Source: a virus
Lineage: Duplodnaviria; Caudoviricetes
DNA: 64,000 nucleotides
Direction: 5' to 3' (one strand)
Virus record (IMG/VR): IMGVR_UViG_3300037466_003648
Location: 1 to 64,000 of that record
Shown: positions 2,733-13,714 of the stretch, in pieces
How positions within the stretch are numbered: position 1 is the first letter of the stretch
Layout: each line of letters begins with the position of its first letter
Position numbers and translations under genes: made by a program
Notes under the pieces: generated by a model
Seen by the model: only the letters and a program-made list of their open reading frames with translations
Databases searched by the model: none
What the model was told of the DNA's origin: nothing

Positions 2733-3530
2733 ATGTTCAAGAACGCTGACAACCTGTCCAAGCTCGCCGCGCCGCCGATCGCGCCCGTGGTCGAGCCCTT
2801 CAAGCCCACGGTTGTGCCCGCTGGGTTCGCGGGTGTCCACACGTTGGCGATCCAGATCGCCATCACCCAGTGGCGCGGCAAGCTCACGGGTGCCTTCCCC
2901 AACACGATGAACGGCAAGGCGCACCGCCTCGACGTCTCGCGGATGGTGGCCTTCGATGACTGCACCGAAGACGCCTTCGCCTGGCTCAAGACGCGCCTGG
3001 GGCCGAAGCACGAAGACCGCACGCTGCGGCCGGACGATCGCCACTCGCTGGTGATGTACCGCGGCGGTCCGCACGGGCTCAAGGATCTCAAGCCCTGGTT
3101 CCTGATGTACAAGGAGGTCAGCGAAGCGATCGCCTGGTGCCAGGAGCAAGTGGTCATCAGCCGCGGGCAGGATCACTTCGCGCTGGTGATGCTGGTCAGC
3201 ACCAGTGATTGGGACCTCAAGAAGCCGGGCAACCCCAACTTCGACCCCTTCTACGAGGCGGTGCTTCGTGGAATCTCCGACTTGGAGGTGGTGAAGTTGT
3301 CCCCGGAACCCAGCATCGAGCTGCCGGATGGCTTCCCCGAGAAGGAGCTGGTGCAACCGGTAGAGACGCCCAAGCCGCGCATCATCGTGAGCGCGGCGGA
3401 GCAGGTGCGCCGCAAGATCGACACCAGCCACGAACAGCCGGTCGCACCCGGCGCCAAGCCCGAGTACGTCGACAGCAAGGAACGTCCTGGCGTGGTCGAC
3501 GAGCTGATCGCCGACTTCGTCGAGCGCTAG
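2733..3530 (+). CDS. hypothetical protein immediately upstream of the RNAP genes
   Basis: SD GAGAGGAG; 265-aa ORF, 15 nt before the beta-like gene. Confidence 0.8.
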   Translation: MFKNADNLSKLAAPPIAPVVEPFKPTVVPAGFAGVHTLAIQIAITQWRGKLTGAFPNTMNGKAHRLDVSRMVAFDDCTEDAFAWLKTRLGPKHEDRTLRPDDRHSLVMYRGGPHGLKDLKPWFLMYKEVSEAIAWCQEQVVISRGQDHFALVMLVSTSDWDLKKPGNPNFDPFYEAVLRGISDLEVVKLSPEPSIELPDGFPEKELVQPVETPKPRIIVSAAEQVRRKIDTSHEQPVAPGAKPEYVDSKERPGVVDELIADFVER

Positions 3531-3545
3531 AGGAGAACACAACCG

Positions 3546-5510
3546 ATGTCCAACGAATCCAACATCAAGCACGTCCTGGTGATCGGCCAGCCGACCCAGA
3601 TGGTGGAGGACTTGTTCCCTCACCTGGACCCCAACGAGCCCAAGGCGCCCGACGAGGTGTTCAAGCGCTTCGGTGGCTTCACCTACGTGGATGCGCCCAG
3701 CGAGTTGGTCGACCCTAACAACTGGACGATGATGGGTGGGCAAGGCGACGTGGACGTGCTCACGGACACGCTGCTCTGCTTCGTCAAGAAGGGTGGCGTG
3801 ATCTACCTGGGCAGCGCCCTGGAGCGCACCAGCGATGACCACAAGGCGCTCGTCCAGCTCGACGAGGTCTGCCCCAACGCCATCCTCGACGAGGCCATCG
3901 AGCTGCTCAAGTTGCAGCTGGGCAAGGCGATCGCCGACCCGCTCGACTTCGAGACCGCGGTCATCGAGGCGATGGACGTCCACAACGTCGCGGGTGAGAA
4001 GGTGATCTTCGCCGGTGCCGAAGAGGACAACGTGGCCGCCTTCCACGCGCCGCTGCGTGCCAGCAAGACGCACACGCTCAAGTGGTGCCCGGACGGCACG
4101 ATCGAGCTGGACGGGGCGATTCTCCGGCGCACGGCGCTGATGGGGATCGGCCACCTCAAGACCGAGGTGCTGGGCGGTCGCGTGCTGGAGCCCGGCGAGG
4201 TCGTTGGCTTCATCGCCAACCGGATGGCGCTCAACGGCGTCGACGACCTGGTGGGCTACGGTCGCGCCTTCGGTCCCGGCAAGGAGGACCACACCAACGC
4301 CACCCTCACGGACGAGGGGCGGCAGTTCCGTGCGCACGGGATCGTGGGCGTGGTGAGCGTGCACGGCAACTTCGTGTCGAAGGCCAAGCCCGCGATGGTG
4401 GAGCTGGTGGCGCAAGCGCTGCACCAGCTGGACCCCAAGCAGCCCTTGTTCCTGCACCAGCAGGTCAAGGAGATCTACGAGGGTGAGGAGGCGATGAAAG
4501 CCTTCCGCGCCCAGATGGAGAAGGACGGCCGCGTCACGCTTTTCGGCAAGAGCACCAAGCACACGCGCGTGGACGCGGGCGCTTACTGCCTCTACACCGA
4601 GGATGGGACGGGCACGCTCACCCGCAAGGCGGTGATCGGTAACTTCGAGGTGGGCAACGATGGGTCTATCTACGCTCCCAAGAGCCTGATGGACGGCATC
4701 GCGGGCTACCTCAAGGAGTCGGTGGTTGCCAAGCGTGACTTCGGCACGATGAGCGAGGACTTGCTGTCCCGCTACTACAACGCCGAGGTCGTGGTCAAGG
4801 AGGGCGATCGCCTGCTGCCGGGCGACGTGGTCTTCACCATCGACGGCATTCCGCACACCTGGGAGTCCAAGGCGGACTACGGGATCGTGACGGGTGTGAC
4901 CGACACGATCAGCACCAAGCTGGTGCACTGCGAGGTGCGCATCGACGCCTGGTTCGAGGGCGACTGCAAGATGCGTGGCTTCGGCAAGGGCTTGATCGCC
5001 CCGATGGAAGCCTGCGGCATCACCTGCAACGTCAAGGACGCCATCATCATCGGTGCCGCGGGCATCATCAAGGACAGCGCGGCTGCGAAGTCCAAGATGA
5101 GCAACGAGCGCCGCGAGCGTGTGGTGGTCACCATCGAGTACTGCGAGCGTGACTTCGAGCTGGCGATCGCCAAGCACAACCCCGAGTGGGACGAAGACAC
5201 GCACCAGACGGGTTGTATGACCAAGGTCTACCCGGATCTGTGCGTGATGAGCTTCGACTGCGGCAACCGCACGGTCACCATCATCGACGAGAACGCGCTG
5301 GTGGCCGATGTGACCTTCATGATCGAAGCGTCACCGGTGGGACAGGCGGTCGGGTCGTCTTCGATGACCTTGCCGCAGATGGGCTTCCTGTCCAGCTTGC
5401 CCACCGGCAACGCCTGGCTCAACCAGGAGGCACTGCCCGGCGTCGTGCGCCGCGTGGATGCGCTCACCTACCTGCACGCCGTCAGCAACGGCATCCCTGT
5501 CGAGTTGTAA
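3546..5510 (+). CDS. divergent RNA polymerase beta-like subunit (double-psi beta-barrel carrying the two catalytic-centre lysines)
   Basis: GNDGSIYAPKSL aligns by eye to RpoB YNFEDSILVSER; VKEGDRLLPGDVV to the VxGGDILV region; GDCKMRGFGKGLIAPME (nt ~4959-5006) to GDKMAGRHGNKGVISKI; DAIIIGAAGI to DIVLNPLGV. Confidence 0.8.
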   Translation: MSNESNIKHVLVIGQPTQMVEDLFPHLDPNEPKAPDEVFKRFGGFTYVDAPSELVDPNNWTMMGGQGDVDVLTDTLLCFVKKGGVIYLGSALERTSDDHKALVQLDEVCPNAILDEAIELLKLQLGKAIADPLDFETAVIEAMDVHNVAGEKVIFAGAEEDNVAAFHAPLRASKTHTLKWCPDGTIELDGAILRRTALMGIGHLKTEVLGGRVLEPGEVVGFIANRMALNGVDDLVGYGRAFGPGKEDHTNATLTDEGRQFRAHGIVGVVSVHGNFVSKAKPAMVELVAQALHQLDPKQPLFLHQQVKEIYEGEEAMKAFRAQMEKDGRVTLFGKSTKHTRVDAGAYCLYTEDGTGTLTRKAVIGNFEVGNDGSIYAPKSLMDGIAGYLKESVVAKRDFGTMSEDLLSRYYNAEVVVKEGDRLLPGDVVFTIDGIPHTWESKADYGIVTGVTDTISTKLVHCEVRIDAWFEGDCKMRGFGKGLIAPMEACGITCNVKDAIIIGAAGIIKDSAAAKSKMSNERRERVVVTIEYCERDFELAIAKHNPEWDEDTHQTGCMTKVYPDLCVMSFDCGNRTVTIIDENALVADVTFMIEASPVGQAVGSSSMTLPQMGFLSSLPTGNAWLNQEALPGVVRRVDALTYLHAVSNGIPVEL

Positions 5511-5524
5511 GGAGAGTATCACCG

Positions 5525-7039
5525 ATGTCCAACACCAGCCTGCTGACCGAGTCCACGGTCACCATCCACTACATCGGCCACGAGGCCCTCAACCTGCCCA
5601 CGGTCGGGCTCACCGACCACGAGCTGCTCAAGGAAGCGGCCAAGGAGTTCCCCAAGGGGCTGAACCTGATGGGCAGCAACCTGGGTCCGGTGTGGGTGCA
5701 CCCCACGATGCTGCTCAACCTGGCGCAGCCCGACGGCTTCGGCCTGGAGCTGCAAGGGCTGGCCCACAGCGCGGCGGAGCTGCTGCGCTTGGCGGCCGAC
5801 CCGGAGAAGGCCGACGAGCTGACCGGCAAGGGGATCGACCGCATGATCGCCCTGTTCGCGGCGCAAGCCCACGGGCAGGCGATCGCCAAGCGTCCCAACC
5901 AGCTGCACGCGCACCGCTGGGGTGCCGCGGCCAAGGTGGCCGGTGCCGACCGCGTCACGCCCGGTATGCTGGAGATTCACCCCGAGGGCAACGTGGCCGC
6001 ACGCCTCGCCCAGCTCTTCGGCTGCGTGCCTGGTGCCACGGGCGGTTGGGCCGACCTGGAGGGCCGCCAGCTGATGCTGCTGCGTCACCCGTTCATCCTG
6101 GGCTACGTGGTCACGATCGGGTTCAACGAGAACCTGACCAAGAACCTCACCCTGGTCAACCGCCTGGATGGCCGCCGCGCCACCGGCATGGACTTCGACG
6201 GTGATCAGGTGTTCCTGTTCGCCATCAAGAGCCGCATCATGGCGGCGATGATCGACGCCGAGATCAAGGCAGTCGTGCCGGACAACGACGCCACCAAGCT
6301 CGTGTTGGGCAAGCCCTGCGAGGAGCCCGGCGGCGAGTGGTGGGGCGAGTTGTTGGAGAAGTCCACCGAGCAGAAGCTCGACCAGCACTTCACCAAGACC
6401 ATCGGCGAGTGGATCAACTCCCACATCACAATGGGCGACTACGCCAACAAGTTCACGCCCTTCGCGTATCGGATCTCCGACATTGGTGGCGCCATGGCTG
6501 CCGTGGGCATCCCTGGTGCGCGCGAGATGTCGCTGATCGGCGCCACGATCGAGGAGACCTTCTACCTGGGGCTGTCTGGCGGTCCCAAGGAGCTGGACGA
6601 GGCCATGGAGACCTGGTTCCGCAAGAAGATGAGCGCTGCCAACCAGCGCATCCTCTTCGCGGGGCTGCGCACCGTGGTCAACCCGGACCTGCTCGCCAAC
6701 GCGGATGTCCGCACGGCAATCGCCCGCGGGTCGGCCATCAACGGCGGTCGCTTCGACGACTGCAACCCGCAAGAGCTGCTGGTCCATACCGCCTTCCTGG
6801 TCGGCAAGGGCAAGCTCACCCTGGGCAGCGGCGTGCTGCTCGACCAGCTGGCCCTGATCGCCAGCGAGCCGACGCTGTCGGCCGAGCTGCGCGAGTCGTT
6901 CGTCGCGCGGATGCTCTTCCACGCGGCGCGCAAGCTGCACCAGGTGGTGGGCAAGGGCAATCCCATCGTGGGCGAGACCCCGAGCGACGACTACGAGGCC
7001 GATGGCTTCGAGGAGTACACCTCCGACTTCGAGGAGTAA
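5525..7039 (+). CDS. divergent RNA polymerase beta-prime-like subunit (catalytic DFDGD)
   Basis: SD AAGGAG, ATG 5525; MLLRHP equivalent to RpoC LLNRAP; GMDFDGDQV (DFDGD at nt 6191-6205) equivalent to NADFDGDQM; adjacent to the beta-like gene. Confidence 0.88.
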   Translation: MSNTSLLTESTVTIHYIGHEALNLPTVGLTDHELLKEAAKEFPKGLNLMGSNLGPVWVHPTMLLNLAQPDGFGLELQGLAHSAAELLRLAADPEKADELTGKGIDRMIALFAAQAHGQAIAKRPNQLHAHRWGAAAKVAGADRVTPGMLEIHPEGNVAARLAQLFGCVPGATGGWADLEGRQLMLLRHPFILGYVVTIGFNENLTKNLTLVNRLDGRRATGMDFDGDQVFLFAIKSRIMAAMIDAEIKAVVPDNDATKLVLGKPCEEPGGEWWGELLEKSTEQKLDQHFTKTIGEWINSHITMGDYANKFTPFAYRISDIGGAMAAVGIPGAREMSLIGATIEETFYLGLSGGPKELDEAMETWFRKKMSAANQRILFAGLRTVVNPDLLANADVRTAIARGSAINGGRFDDCNPQELLVHTAFLVGKGKLTLGSGVLLDQLALIASEPTLSAELRESFVARMLFHAARKLHQVVGKGNPIVGETPSDDYEADGFEEYTSDFEE

Positions 7040-7050
7040 GCCGGTCGATG

Positions 7051-7074
7051 CCCCAACTGGTCCGCCGGTTGGGG
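7051..7074 (+). terminator. 10-bp hairpin with UCCG (UNCG-type) loop after the beta-prime-like gene
   Basis: CCCCAACTGG-TCCG-CCGGTTGGGG; no U-tract. Confidence 0.45.
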
Positions 7075-7370
7075 CGCCTGCGGCGCCGGTTGCCCCACCC
7101 GCCTTCCCCCGTTTGATCTTCTTTTGGTTGGCCCACCCTCTGACCCCCGTTTGGCGGTGGTGGGGTTGGGCTGGATGGACATCGGTTGGTCCACCTGGGC
7201 GGTTGTCCGGGTGGGCCAGTCGGACATCGGTTGCGCTGGCCGGGTGGCCGGGGCGGTTGCCAGTTGGCGATCGCCCCGGTTGGCCGGTTGGGGCGGTAGG
7301 ACATTGGTTGTCCCCGTTGGCCCGTTGGGTCCGTTGGGACAGGGTTGACCAGAGCGGTTGACCCCGGCTG
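7075..7370 (+). repeat. non-coding, strand-biased (C/G)GTTG(G) simple-repeat tract
   Basis: Roughly 15 GGTTG/CGTTG units counted by eye in a ~300-bp intergenic region. Confidence 0.6.
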
Positions 7371-8196: not shown

Positions 8197-8792
8197 GGCA
8201 CGCGGGCTGGGCCGTGGTGGGATTGGCCTTCTTCGGACTCACGTTCGCCGTGGGTCACCAACCCGTTGCCCAGCCCACCCACTGGGTCCAGGGCAACGAC
8301 CTGCTCGACGAGCACAGCACCCACGGCGAGGGCAACCTCCAAGCCGTGCGCGGTACCGTGGACCGGGTGGGCACCAAGGTGACGGGCAGCCGCACCATCC
8401 ACCTGATTGCCGATGATGGTGCGCCCATCCTGATCAGCGTACCACCCACCGTAAGCGTGCGGATGCCCAAGAGCGGCGATCGCATCGGTGTGGTGGGCAG
8501 CGTCATCACGCCCGGCACGCTCACCCTCAACGGTCGCGATCAGCTGCAGTTCCTGCCGCCCGCCACCAACAGCTCGCGCCGCCGCGAGTACTTCGCCCAG
8601 CTGGAGAACATCGAACGTCTCCCGTCGGGTGCGCACCGCGCCACGGTGGTAGGCGTGCACGGCGAGTTCGTGACGACCGCCCTGATCCAGGCTGGCATCG
8701 CGATTCCCCACAAGAAGTGGGCCGACTCCGGCTACATGATGAAGGGCTACGTCGGCAGCGACGGCACCTACGTGGTGGAGTCGCTGGAATGA
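8193..8792 (+). CDS. membrane-anchored protein with N-terminal hydrophobic segment and possible OB-fold-like domains
   Basis: GWAVVGLAFFGLTFAV at the N-terminus; ATGA overlap with the next gene. Confidence 0.65.
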   Translation: MRHAGWAVVGLAFFGLTFAVGHQPVAQPTHWVQGNDLLDEHSTHGEGNLQAVRGTVDRVGTKVTGSRTIHLIADDGAPILISVPPTVSVRMPKSGDRIGVVGSVITPGTLTLNGRDQLQFLPPATNSSRRREYFAQLENIERLPSGAHRATVVGVHGEFVTTALIQAGIAIPHKKWADSGYMMKGYVGSDGTYVVESLE

Positions 8793-10027
8793 TCGCCCTC
8801 GTCCTGGCCGCGGCCTTCGGTACGCTCGCAGGACTGCTGTCCGCGCTGCCGGGGCTGCACATCTCCATCCTGCTCATCGGGGCGTTGCCCCTGCTGGGTG
8901 TCAACGGGCCAGTGGGTGCCGTGGTGTTGGTCACGGCCATCGGATCGGGTCTGATCGCGAGCAACCTCGCCAAGACCTTTCACCCGGCCACGGCCGACAC
9001 CATCCGCTCGGCCACACCCGAGCAAATTCTTGCATATCGGGGGGACGGTCTCAAAGCGGTGGGCATCCAGCATCAGGCGGTGTGGGCAGGCGTCCTCACC
9101 GTTCTGATGCTGGCCGCTGTTTTGCTGCCGTTGCGCACCCTGATCGGGACCGGCTTCGCTGCCGTGATCACCATGGTCACCGGCTGGTTGGTCCTGCCCC
9201 TGCTGCTCCTGTTCACGGGGCTGGTCGTGCGCCAGGCGAAGCACAAACTTCCCACGGTGGCGGTCATCATCCTGGCAACAGGGCTGGGGTTCTACACCCT
9301 CAACTGTGCTGCCCTCACGGGCAACCACAACGCGCTCGCCCCTCTTTTGGGTGGCGGCTTCGCGCTTCCCGCGCTTGCGATGGTCGTGCTCCATCGCGGA
9401 AGGGTCCAACCCTTCCCCAAACAGCGTGTGGTCAACAGCGCTGCGAAGCCTGCCCCCGAACAAGTGTGGGGCGCGCTCGGTGGGATCGCGACGGCGCTGA
9501 CCGCGGGCTTGGGCTCCGGCGGCGCCGTCTCGGTCTTCGCCGACCAGGTCAACCACGAAGAGTACCTGGGCATGCACACCGCATCGGAAGCCGCGAACCA
9601 TGTGTTCGCCGTGCTCCTCTTCATCCTGGTTGGGACGACCCACTCGGGTACCGGCGTTGCCTTGCGGCAACAACTGGTGAGTCCCGGCCTCGCCATGAGC
9701 TTGCTGCTCCTCGTCGCGCTGGCGTTGAGCACGTTCGTGGCGCACTACGTTGCACAACAAGTAGTAGGGAGGTACGTATCATGCATTGGTAGGATTCCCC
9801 AACGGTCGGCCGCGATGGTCATCACCGTTGTGACCTTGGCACTGCTCTTCACCGAGACCGGCCTGGCAGGGATCGCTGTTGCGATCGCCGCTGCCGCGTT
9901 GGGCTGGTGTGCCAAGACAAACTTCGTTCCGAACCAGGCGATGACTTTCACCCTCACGGGTCCGGTCCTCGTCTACCATCTGGGTCTCTCCGGGTGGCTG
10001 GCATCGGTTCTCCACGTCCTCCATTGA
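8789..10027 (+). CDS. TctA-family (tripartite tricarboxylate transporter large subunit, COG1784-like) polytopic membrane protein
   Basis: About 10-12 hydrophobic helices; PGLH near the N-terminus; TIRSATPEQILAYRGDGLKAV, LAPLLGGGFAL and EEY...AANHVFAVLLFILVGTTHSG resemble TctA conserved blocks. Confidence 0.72.
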   Translation: MIALVLAAAFGTLAGLLSALPGLHISILLIGALPLLGVNGPVGAVVLVTAIGSGLIASNLAKTFHPATADTIRSATPEQILAYRGDGLKAVGIQHQAVWAGVLTVLMLAAVLLPLRTLIGTGFAAVITMVTGWLVLPLLLLFTGLVVRQAKHKLPTVAVIILATGLGFYTLNCAALTGNHNALAPLLGGGFALPALAMVVLHRGRVQPFPKQRVVNSAAKPAPEQVWGALGGIATALTAGLGSGGAVSVFADQVNHEEYLGMHTASEAANHVFAVLLFILVGTTHSGTGVALRQQLVSPGLAMSLLLLVALALSTFVAHYVAQQVVGRYVSCIGRIPQRSAAMVITVVTLALLFTETGLAGIAVAIAAAALGWCAKTNFVPNQAMTFTLTGPVLVYHLGLSGWLASVLHVLH

Positions 10028-12332: not shown

Positions 12333-12370
12333 GGTGACAGAACCTACCTCGGACGAACAAGGTGACCTTG

Positions 12371-12934
12371 ATGCTACCACAGAACAACAGGGGTGACAAG
12401 CCCTATGACGTTCCACGGAACCTGCAGTCCAACTACACCAACATCCACTGGGACAAGTTGCCTCCGGGAGCTGTGGCGGTGTTGTCACTGGGTAGTGACA
12501 CTGCTAACTTCGAGACGTTGTACTACTTGGCAGCGTGTATGGCACGTCTACCAGGTCGACACCGACCCCGTGTCGAAGCTGCATTGGATCTTTGGGTAGC
12601 GGGCAACAAACGCCTCGAACCCCTAGTGACACCTGCAGTACGTCGTGCGTTCGAGACGGTCTTCGCCAACAGCAAAGGAGCACCCCCTGTGTCCAAGAAT
12701 CTCACCGCTAATGAGAAACGTATCTTCGCGGCCCTGACTAATCTTCAGCCATCGCCCCACGAGATCTTCGAGGTTAGCTATAAGCAAATCGCGGAAGAAT
12801 CTGGTGTTCCCATAAGGAGCGTGATTAGGTCCGTCAAGAAGATGGCAGAGGTGCGGGGTGCCATCGAGATGGCTCCACCAGAACCCGGTAATCCGCACGC
12901 CAGCAACGCTTACAGGATTCCCGAGGAAAAGTAG
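12371..12934 (+). CDS. winged-HTH DNA-binding protein, replication-initiator-like
   Basis: C-terminal SYKQIAEESGVPIRSVIRSVKKMAEVRGAIE followed by a wing ending SNAYRI; lower GC than flanking genes; start could be GTG 12362. Confidence 0.65.
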   Translation: MLPQNNRGDKPYDVPRNLQSNYTNIHWDKLPPGAVAVLSLGSDTANFETLYYLAACMARLPGRHRPRVEAALDLWVAGNKRLEPLVTPAVRRAFETVFANSKGAPPVSKNLTANEKRIFAALTNLQPSPHEIFEVSYKQIAEESGVPIRSVIRSVKKMAEVRGAIEMAPPEPGNPHASNAYRIPEEK

Positions 12935-13378: not shown

Positions 13379-13714
13379 GTGCTGACCGACCCCGAACGTG
13401 AAGCCATGGTCTACACGCTCGTCGCCGAGCACAAGTTCACCTTCAAGAAGGTAGCGAACCTCATGGGCTGCTCACCGCCTACTGCCAGCAGGCGCTACTT
13501 CGCTCACGTCACACGGCTAGCCGAACAGGAAGCACGAGAGAAGCGGGCAGAAGCCAGGCGCCTCCGCGAGCAACGCTTGGCAGACGCGCCGCTGACACCT
13601 GCCGAACTTCAGGAGCACATCCTCAAAGCCGACCTGGCCTTCGCACAGACCACGCTCAGGCAGGCAGCGTACATTCACCACTTCCTCACGGCAGCTACTG
13701 CCAAGTCAGACTGA
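13379..13714 (+). CDS. HTH protein (sigma-70 region-4-like)
   Basis: SD GAAAGGA; LTDPEREAMV...FTFKKVANLMGCSPPTASRRY. Confidence 0.6.
   Translation: MLTDPEREAMVYTLVAEHKFTFKKVANLMGCSPPTASRRYFAHVTRLAEQEAREKRAEARRLREQRLADAPLTPAELQEHILKADLAFAQTTLRQAAYIHHFLTAATAKSD

Follow-up and report, generated by a model that had tools for sequence, protein, structure and literature searches.

How little of the beta and beta-prime subunits suffices for promoter-dependent transcription is an open question, cellular RNA polymerase (RNAP) being a machine of roughly 400 kDa. The question is raised anew by two adjacent plus-strand genes at positions 3546–7039 of the stretch analyzed here (the window), which covers the first 64 kb of the 205,180-bp IMG/VR virus record IMGVR_UViG_3300037466_003648 (63% GC, rated complete by CheckV). 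They encode proteins of 654 aa (P0001) and 504 aa (P0003), and their sum of 1,158 aa agrees with the figure of about 1,160 aa in an earlier interpretation made from the letters alone (the sequence-only reading), in which they had been taken as a minimal two-subunit, two-barrel RNAP. Our analysis makes it quite probable, on predicted structures above all, that this gene pair encodes the catalytic core of a very compact two-barrel DNA-dependent RNAP, likely the product of a gene fission and active as an obligate heterodimer.

According to the calls of open reading frames (ORFs), the beta-like subunit P0001 is encoded at 3546–5510 and the beta-prime-like subunit P0003, in a different frame, at 5525–7039. 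The TAA of the first gene is followed by a spacer of 14 nt (5511–5524) with the ribosome-binding site AGGAG, and the ATG of the second, at 5525, sits 8 nt past it. Strong codon-position bias is seen in both genes, with 0.83–0.92 GC at third codon positions (GC3). The adjacency, the lengths and the motifs described in the sequence-only reading were all recovered, and translation places every motif at exact coordinates. P0001 contains NDGSI (N371–I375, 4656–4670), which we take to be the counterpart of the NFEDSI segment of Escherichia coli beta, followed by GDRLLPGD (within 4803–4838) and by KMRGFGKG (K475–G482, 4968–4991), presumably the counterpart of the two active-site lysines of beta. P0003 contains LLRHP (6077–6091), assumed here to correspond to LLNRAP of beta-prime, and the metal-binding triad DFDGD (D223, D225, and D227; 6191–6205), which is the sole DxDGD in a high-GC3 open frame across the 205-kb genome. 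A search of 5.8 billion proteins retrieved about 20 homologues of each protein (36–71% identity), all of them metagenomic and none with a Pfam domain. Residues E368, N371, G373, K475, R477, and K481 of P0001 are invariant among these homologues (D372 is at least 90% conserved), as are R187, P189, D223, D225, G226, and D227 of P0003. All the distant fused relatives checked (see below) keep GDxDGD, and all except one (P0066) keep K-x-R-x3-K. Judged by this conservation across homologues, the motifs of both proteins are not chance strings.

Neither protein resembles a known family at the sequence level in the libraries searched. Pfam gave no family at E ≤ 10 and PHROGs no match, RNAP families included, while phmmer and profile searches of the PDB sequences with both proteins returned chance matches only (E > 0.1) and blastn and tblastn of the gene pair against 50,697 phage records found nothing. 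Six-frame searches of the genome with PF00623 (Rpb1_2) and PF00562 (Rpb2_6) were also empty, with 14 of 14 controls detected. The family is new to the libraries searched and is unnamed in any of them; a literature search found no description of it either, with a coverage that is incomplete, so that novelty is not proven by this search.

The predicted structures give a much clearer picture. We used AlphaFold2 (AF2) models with pLDDT values of 82.8 (P0001) and 80.7 (P0003). The P0001 model has a beta-type double-psi beta-barrel (DPBB) at aa 357–596 (4614–5333), interrupted by a sandwich-barrel-hybrid (SBHM, flap-like) insert at aa 386–471 (4701–4958) that contains GDRLLPGD, and the P0003 model has a beta-prime-type DPBB at aa 132–255 (5918–6289). 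Both barrels predicted by the sequence-only reading are resolved in this way, including that of the 654-aa protein, on which it had made itself depend. Two features of the two-barrel superfamily are found in these models, namely a DPBB with a DxDxD metal-binding triad (P0003) and a second DPBB with two conserved basic residues (P0001), and a third, the SBHM (flap) domain inside the beta barrel of P0001, is characteristic of cellular-type enzymes. The SBHM insert occurs in beta subunits of the cellular, killer-plasmid, and phiKZ types but not in RNA-dependent RNA polymerases (RdRPs), YonO, or NCgl1702-like enzymes (Iyer et al., 2021, PMC7824862), so its presence places the family on the cellular-type side of the superfamily.

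Structural searches point in the same direction. Foldseek, proposed beforehand as a check on each ORF, was run with both models against PDB, Swiss-Prot, and the ESM Atlas and returned RNAP beta and beta-prime chains almost exclusively. For P0001 there were 130 PDB chains at E ≤ 1e-3 (best 6e-7), and 50 of the 50 listed are second-largest subunits. The best PDB matches of P0003 were largest subunits (bacteria, archaea, Pol I/II/III, plastids, and phiKZ; E from 4e-4), a designed DPBB protein being the lone non-RNAP entry among them, and Rpb1-type clusters lead its best ten in the ESM Atlas shape search, with a top TM-score of 0.57 over 415 of 504 residues. YonO was not among the best 30 Swiss-Prot structural matches of either model, which does not exclude a kinship with it. 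The structural alignment of each chain spans the whole length of Rpb2 or Rpb1, with aa 131–467 of P0003 aligned to beta-prime 422–1256. On the evidence of these models, P0001 and P0003 are reduced and very divergent homologues of beta and beta-prime.

That the two chains dock onto each other, as the sequence-only reading had supposed, is what structure prediction returned for the pair (P0001 aa 127–650 and P0003 aa 9–470, user-made alignments, one Mg). The ipSAE was 0.87, whereas the highest of three controls gave 0.30; 58 of 80 solved complexes and 2 of 110 mismatched pairs reach the mark applied, in a calibration made, unlike the run of the pair, without user alignments or ligands. The contacts of three runs coincide to at least 90%, with partner pLDDT of 86–87, and the confident interface comprises more than 400 contacts that involve the catalytic motifs of both chains (K475 and 481–483 of P0001, and the DFDGD residues 223–227 of P0003). 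In the predicted complex the two barrels face each other and form one active center. The two genes are also adjacent, with gaps of 4–27 nt, in every contig of a split relative that was fetched (L002–L006), and joint function is further supported because fused relatives carry both halves in one chain. Taken with the model of the complex, P0001 and P0003 very probably form one two-barrel polymerase.

These fused relatives came to light in a census of the family, for which 1.84 billion cluster representatives were searched exhaustively with HMMER profiles and which yields 34 clusters only. At least 15 of the 34 are single chains of 1,081–1,382 aa whose C-terminal half holds the beta-prime-like module, and the order is beta-like and then beta-prime-like in all the fused clusters tested with both profiles (13/13). 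The fused protein P0046, for example, is 43% identical to P0001 over its residues 13–649 and matches the beta-prime profile at residues 661–1143. A maximum-likelihood tree of the beta-prime module (39 rows, with fragments and the four most distant matches left out, and with a midpoint root only) contains one clade of nine fused and two truncated members (support 98/93) and another of 27 members (support 99/96), to which this phage belongs, made up of 24 split and three fused members (P0046 and the pair P0049 and P0050). The fused P0066 appears as a very long branch outside both. The split state is limited on this tree to the clade containing this phage, and the deeper branches are fused. Fused and split genes fill the same syntenic slot in related jumbo-phage contigs (48–63% GC).

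Since the split state is confined to one clade of this midpoint-rooted tree, fission with later re-fusions is the simplest reading, and the two-gene form is probably, in the direction that we infer, a fission product of a single-chain enzyme of ~1,150 aa. The new architectural point is that the family exists both fused and split, in either case at ~1,150 aa, and judging from their sequences the fused relatives argue that the recognizable core is complete within this length. It also qualifies the claim of the sequence-only reading that the architecture stands apart from the single-chain phage enzymes: the claim holds with respect to the YonO clade, from which the pair differs by its SBHM insert and its two chains, but not within the family itself, so many clusters of which (at least 15) are single-chain.

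The enzyme that we propose would be translated as two chains from one operon, across the 14-nt spacer. P0003 would be a reduced beta-prime, its barrel supplying the Mg-binding DFDGD triad and its helical region past the barrel, by structural alignment, corresponding to the part of beta-prime/Rpb1 from the bridge helix to the C-terminus. P0001 would be a reduced beta, its barrel supplying K475, R477, and K481 and carrying the flap-like SBHM insert. Packed over a very large predicted interface, the two barrels would make one active center, as in cellular RNAP. Since the enzyme exists in relatives as a single chain of ~1,150 aa, the two-gene form would most likely derive from fission and the pair would be an obligate heterodimer. 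It would make RNA from phage DNA, probably for classes of genes without host-type promoters, and a phage-encoded specificity factor would be used.

Several points weigh against this proposal. Sequence profiles reach no known RNAP, and the homology rests on predicted structure and short motifs. Whole-chain TM-scores are low (0.2–0.57) and the VIA Z of the beta-like chain is middling (7.5–8.8), while the success of the docking may partly reflect the memory that the model has of solved RNAPs. The trigger loop and the bridge helix could not be mapped residue by residue; after the barrel of P0003 comes a 34-residue helix (aa 293–326; invariant W296, H300, T311, P312, Y315, and R316). Finally, the present data would fit either DNA or RNA as the template and do not define the product. 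A two-barrel polymerase with another job, be it primase-like, an RdRP (a relative of QDE-1/RdRP), or a DNA polymerase like the archaeal PolD, is improbable in our estimate: the full-length matches are to the beta and beta-prime subunits of DNA-dependent RNAPs, with neither QDE-1 nor PolD matched in this way, RdRP/YonO-type enzymes are reported to lack the SBHM flap insert (PMC7824862), and a family-A DNA polymerase and a DnaG-type primase are already encoded by the phage. Given how extremely the two proteins diverge from every known RNAP, they may also be considered as inactive relics, or as structural proteins in which only the fold survives, but this we regard as most improbable of all, since the metal-binding aspartates and the basic residues are invariant down to 36% identity and are present in all the fused members checked but one, and both genes keep the strong codon-position bias described above.

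A much more serious alternative, to which we give not quite an even chance, is that the pair is only the catalytic center of a larger holoenzyme, which would depend on phage or host proteins to assemble, to recognize promoters, or to be processive. Candidates would be the 265-aa protein encoded upstream, small sigma-region-4-like helix-turn-helix (HTH) proteins at ~12.4–13.7 kb, or host alpha, omega, or sigma. P0001 keeps the flap-like SBHM domain, and in bacteria the flap docks sigma region 4 (PMC7824862); two sub-threshold Sigma70_r4_2 matches lie 5–6 kb downstream; the phiKZ, AR9, and killer-plasmid enzymes all have extra subunits (PMC7598289, PMC6211774). Besides, every relative examined, fused forms included, has a gene for a protein of 199–268 aa ahead of the RNAP gene(s), but this synteny may only reflect that the related genomes are collinear, and the upstream protein is not detectably conserved between split and distant fused genomes. 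The conserved genes on the other side resemble membrane proteins (TctA-like), searches of the genome brought up neither alpha nor sigma region 2 nor any further RNAP domain (a negative that does not extend to T7-type RNAP, for which the search controls gave no signal), and the fused relatives hold everything recognizable in a single chain of 1,081–1,382 aa. Going beyond the core enzyme that we favor, an unrecognized cellular-type lineage cut to ~1,150 residues and self-sufficient as one chain or two, with no need of alpha, omega, or a canonical sigma, seems doubtful to us. If true, it would be the smallest known beta/beta-prime-type enzyme and a natural experiment in which the beta/beta-prime junction has been freely fused or split.

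The source phage is a jumbo myovirus, with tail sheath, portal, protease, and large terminase genes on the minus strand at 132–200 kb. Its own genes for replication and RNA metabolism include a family-A DNA polymerase, helicases, a DnaG-type primase, and an RNA ligase. DNA near-identical to this phage is found in soil and rhizosphere metagenomes, and no RNA run is listed among the public runs that contain it. With a terminal repeat of only 127 nt, the contig probably begins at an arbitrary point, and an entry of the RNAP genes into the cell ahead of the rest was rejected as an idea on these grounds. Two observations concern very large proteins: an ORF of 3,972 aa (G000:C1:132704-144622, minus strand, outside the window) adjoins the large terminase gene, and in related contigs proteins of at least 1,480 aa (to >2,900 aa, cut at the ends of the loci) are encoded upstream of the RNAP gene.

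The 265-aa gene ('U', 2733–3530, plus strand) ends 15 nt before the beta-like gene; it could be an operon partner or an accessory factor. Its product has no Pfam or PHROG match, and a feature search in the Atlas was uninformative (scores ≤ 0.80 only, Atlas model pLDDT 0.33). Homologues with 33–55% identity precede the RNAP genes, immediately in L006 and L004 and with a short ORF in between in L002/L003; tblastn detected no similarity of this gene to those found in the same place beside the distant fused forms. The conserved genes downstream encode a 173-aa protein, one of ~200 aa for which a membrane helix is predicted, and a TctA-like membrane protein of 412 aa, and the conserved neighbors gave no RNAP signal in Pfam or PHROG searches. 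The TctA-like protein (tripartite tricarboxylate transporter; 8789–10027) is very hydrophobic and unusual for a phage, and its gene is kept downstream of the RNAP genes in all the related phage contigs (28–71% identity). Further downstream, at 5–6 kb from the pair, are the two small ORFs (12758–12823 and 13391–13498) with the sub-threshold matches to Sigma70_r4_2 (E 2e-3 and 8e-4, respectively). Since P0001 keeps its flap-like domain, a specificity factor of the small HTH type is plausible, and the small HTH ORFs at about 12362–12934 and ~13.3–13.7 kb are, by their sequence, candidates for minimal factors of this kind.

Immediately after the pair, at 7051–7370 of the plus strand, there is a non-coding array of ~15–20 same-strand (C/G)GTTG units, also seen at 2476–2527. 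With 15 units per 300 nt versus a genome mean of 1.2, its density is the highest in the genome. Similar arrays separate the RNAP gene(s) from the conserved gene that comes next in L006 (12101–12400, 13 units), L004 (5701–6000, eight units), and L018 (13501–13800, seven units). They may be iterons, an origin, or a regulatory region, with a putative link to the RNAP. The k-mers enriched upstream of genes correspond to ribosome-binding sites, together with a weak GGTTGTCC/CGGTTG signal in 15 of 87 upstream regions versus one control; no consistent second promoter element was found beside the GGTTGTCC/CGGTTG signal, and this upstream search gave no convincing phage promoter motif. In a scan of the whole genome, strong sigma-70-like sites (at least 10 of 12 consensus matches) were found only at 65–132 kb, seven of the eight being intergenic; the first 64 kb and the structural module are free of them. 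This distribution is at most suggestive of a division of labor between host and phage polymerases.

Compared with cellular RNAPs (bacterial beta/beta-prime, Rpb2/Rpb1, and the versions of nucleocytoplasmic large DNA viruses and poxviruses), the phage pair shares the order of the genes, beta and then beta-prime, one DPBB per chain, the DFDGD(Q) motif, the two basic residues, the SBHM flap inside the beta barrel, and a structural alignment along the whole length of both chains. It differs in its size (1,158 aa versus about 2,750), in having no Pfam RNAP match, and in a genome without an alpha or omega gene; it must lack most of the lobe and protrusion of beta and a large part of the clamp and jaw of beta-prime. 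The phiKZ/AR9 enzymes have both beta and beta-prime cut into N- and C-terminal pieces, to give four to five polypeptides, usually in two sets, virion and non-virion (PMC7598289, PMC4666361). The phage studied here has one set of two short chains instead, with one DxDGD gene, no match to RNAP families of PHROGs or Pfam, and alignments to full-length Rpb1 and Rpb2, which bears out the distinction from the phiKZ/AR9 enzymes drawn in the sequence-only reading. A phiKZ-like enzyme with more pieces nearby was likewise rejected, given the single DxDGD gene, neighbors without RNAP signal, and a 412-aa gene that is TctA-like.

YonO of SPbeta, gp66 of crAss-like phages, and gp64/gp96 of P23-45 are single-chain two-barrel RNAPs of a second, RdRP-related clade (PMC5467207, PMC10770324), reported to be without the SBHM insert (PMC7824862, PMC10770324). 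The pair differs from them in its insert, its two chains, and its matches to beta and beta-prime far beyond the barrels. The mReC phage RNAPs, on the other hand, are full-size and are found by standard hidden Markov models (PMC7481178). Jumbo phages outside group 1 have been stated to encode no RNAP, except for two YonO-bearing phages (Iyer et al., 2021, PMC7824862), and the clade of this phage is an exception unreported in that analysis.

It may not be the only one. The best viral structural match of P0001 is A0A172Q0S6, an uncharacterized 798-aa protein of the Acinetobacter jumbo phage vB_AbaM_ME3 (Foldseek against BFVD, E 5.9e-9, 600 columns, TMq 0.32). On the minus strand of the ME3 genome (KU935715, L029), a 798-aa ORF (224453–226849), probably A0A172Q0S6 by its length, is followed by ORFs of 243 aa (223574–224305) and 333 aa (222114–223115), the latter with DVDGD. 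Neither profile searches of the ME3 genome nor hhalign against the three candidate ORFs detected similarity to the phage pair. The structural match suggests that this cultured phage may hold an unrecognized split two-barrel RNAP, which we take as a lead and not as a relationship. It also hints that jumbo phages described as RNAP-less may carry polymerases missed by sequence models. Two clusters of phage hypothetical proteins in the ESM Atlas (583 aa, 104 members; 980 aa, 53 members) resemble the P0003 model as well (TM about 0.40 over 270–290 residues), and many of their members carry HTH_23, Sigma70_r4_2, or HTH_7; judging by shape, they may be further unrecognized phage RNAP-like proteins fused to DNA-binding domains.

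The question of a minimal RNAP has so far been approached through the YonO, crAss, and P23-45 enzymes, which belong to a different clade, and through the killer-plasmid enzyme, which is hard to express. The family described here offers a cellular-type core of ~130 kDa with a flap-like domain, from viruses of bacteria and in natural fused and split versions, and it is by being compact, viral, and available in both versions that it makes a minimal beta/beta-prime enzyme directly testable. A compact and likely rifampicin-insensitive enzyme could also serve as an orthogonal transcription tool.

The yeast killer-plasmid enzyme is the closest architectural analogue. It consists of K2ORF6p (982 aa), in which beta is fused to most of beta-prime, and K2ORF7p, and this fusion was called unique in 2018 (PMC6211774). 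The two systems have in common a comparably reduced cellular-type enzyme and, in the fused relatives of the phage pair, the order of beta and then beta-prime. Although no sequence similarity between them was detected, Foldseek aligns residues 299–593 of P0001 with residues 302–595 of the killer-plasmid protein P05472 (E 3.8e-5). The killer-plasmid enzyme acts in the cytoplasm of a eukaryote, where a capping enzyme and a helicase are its partners, and no small beta-prime C-terminal subunit like that of the killer plasmids was identified in the phage. The two also differ in the place of the break: in the killer-plasmid RNAP the fusion is reported to be essential and the break falls inside beta-prime, whereas in the phage pair it falls exactly between beta and beta-prime.

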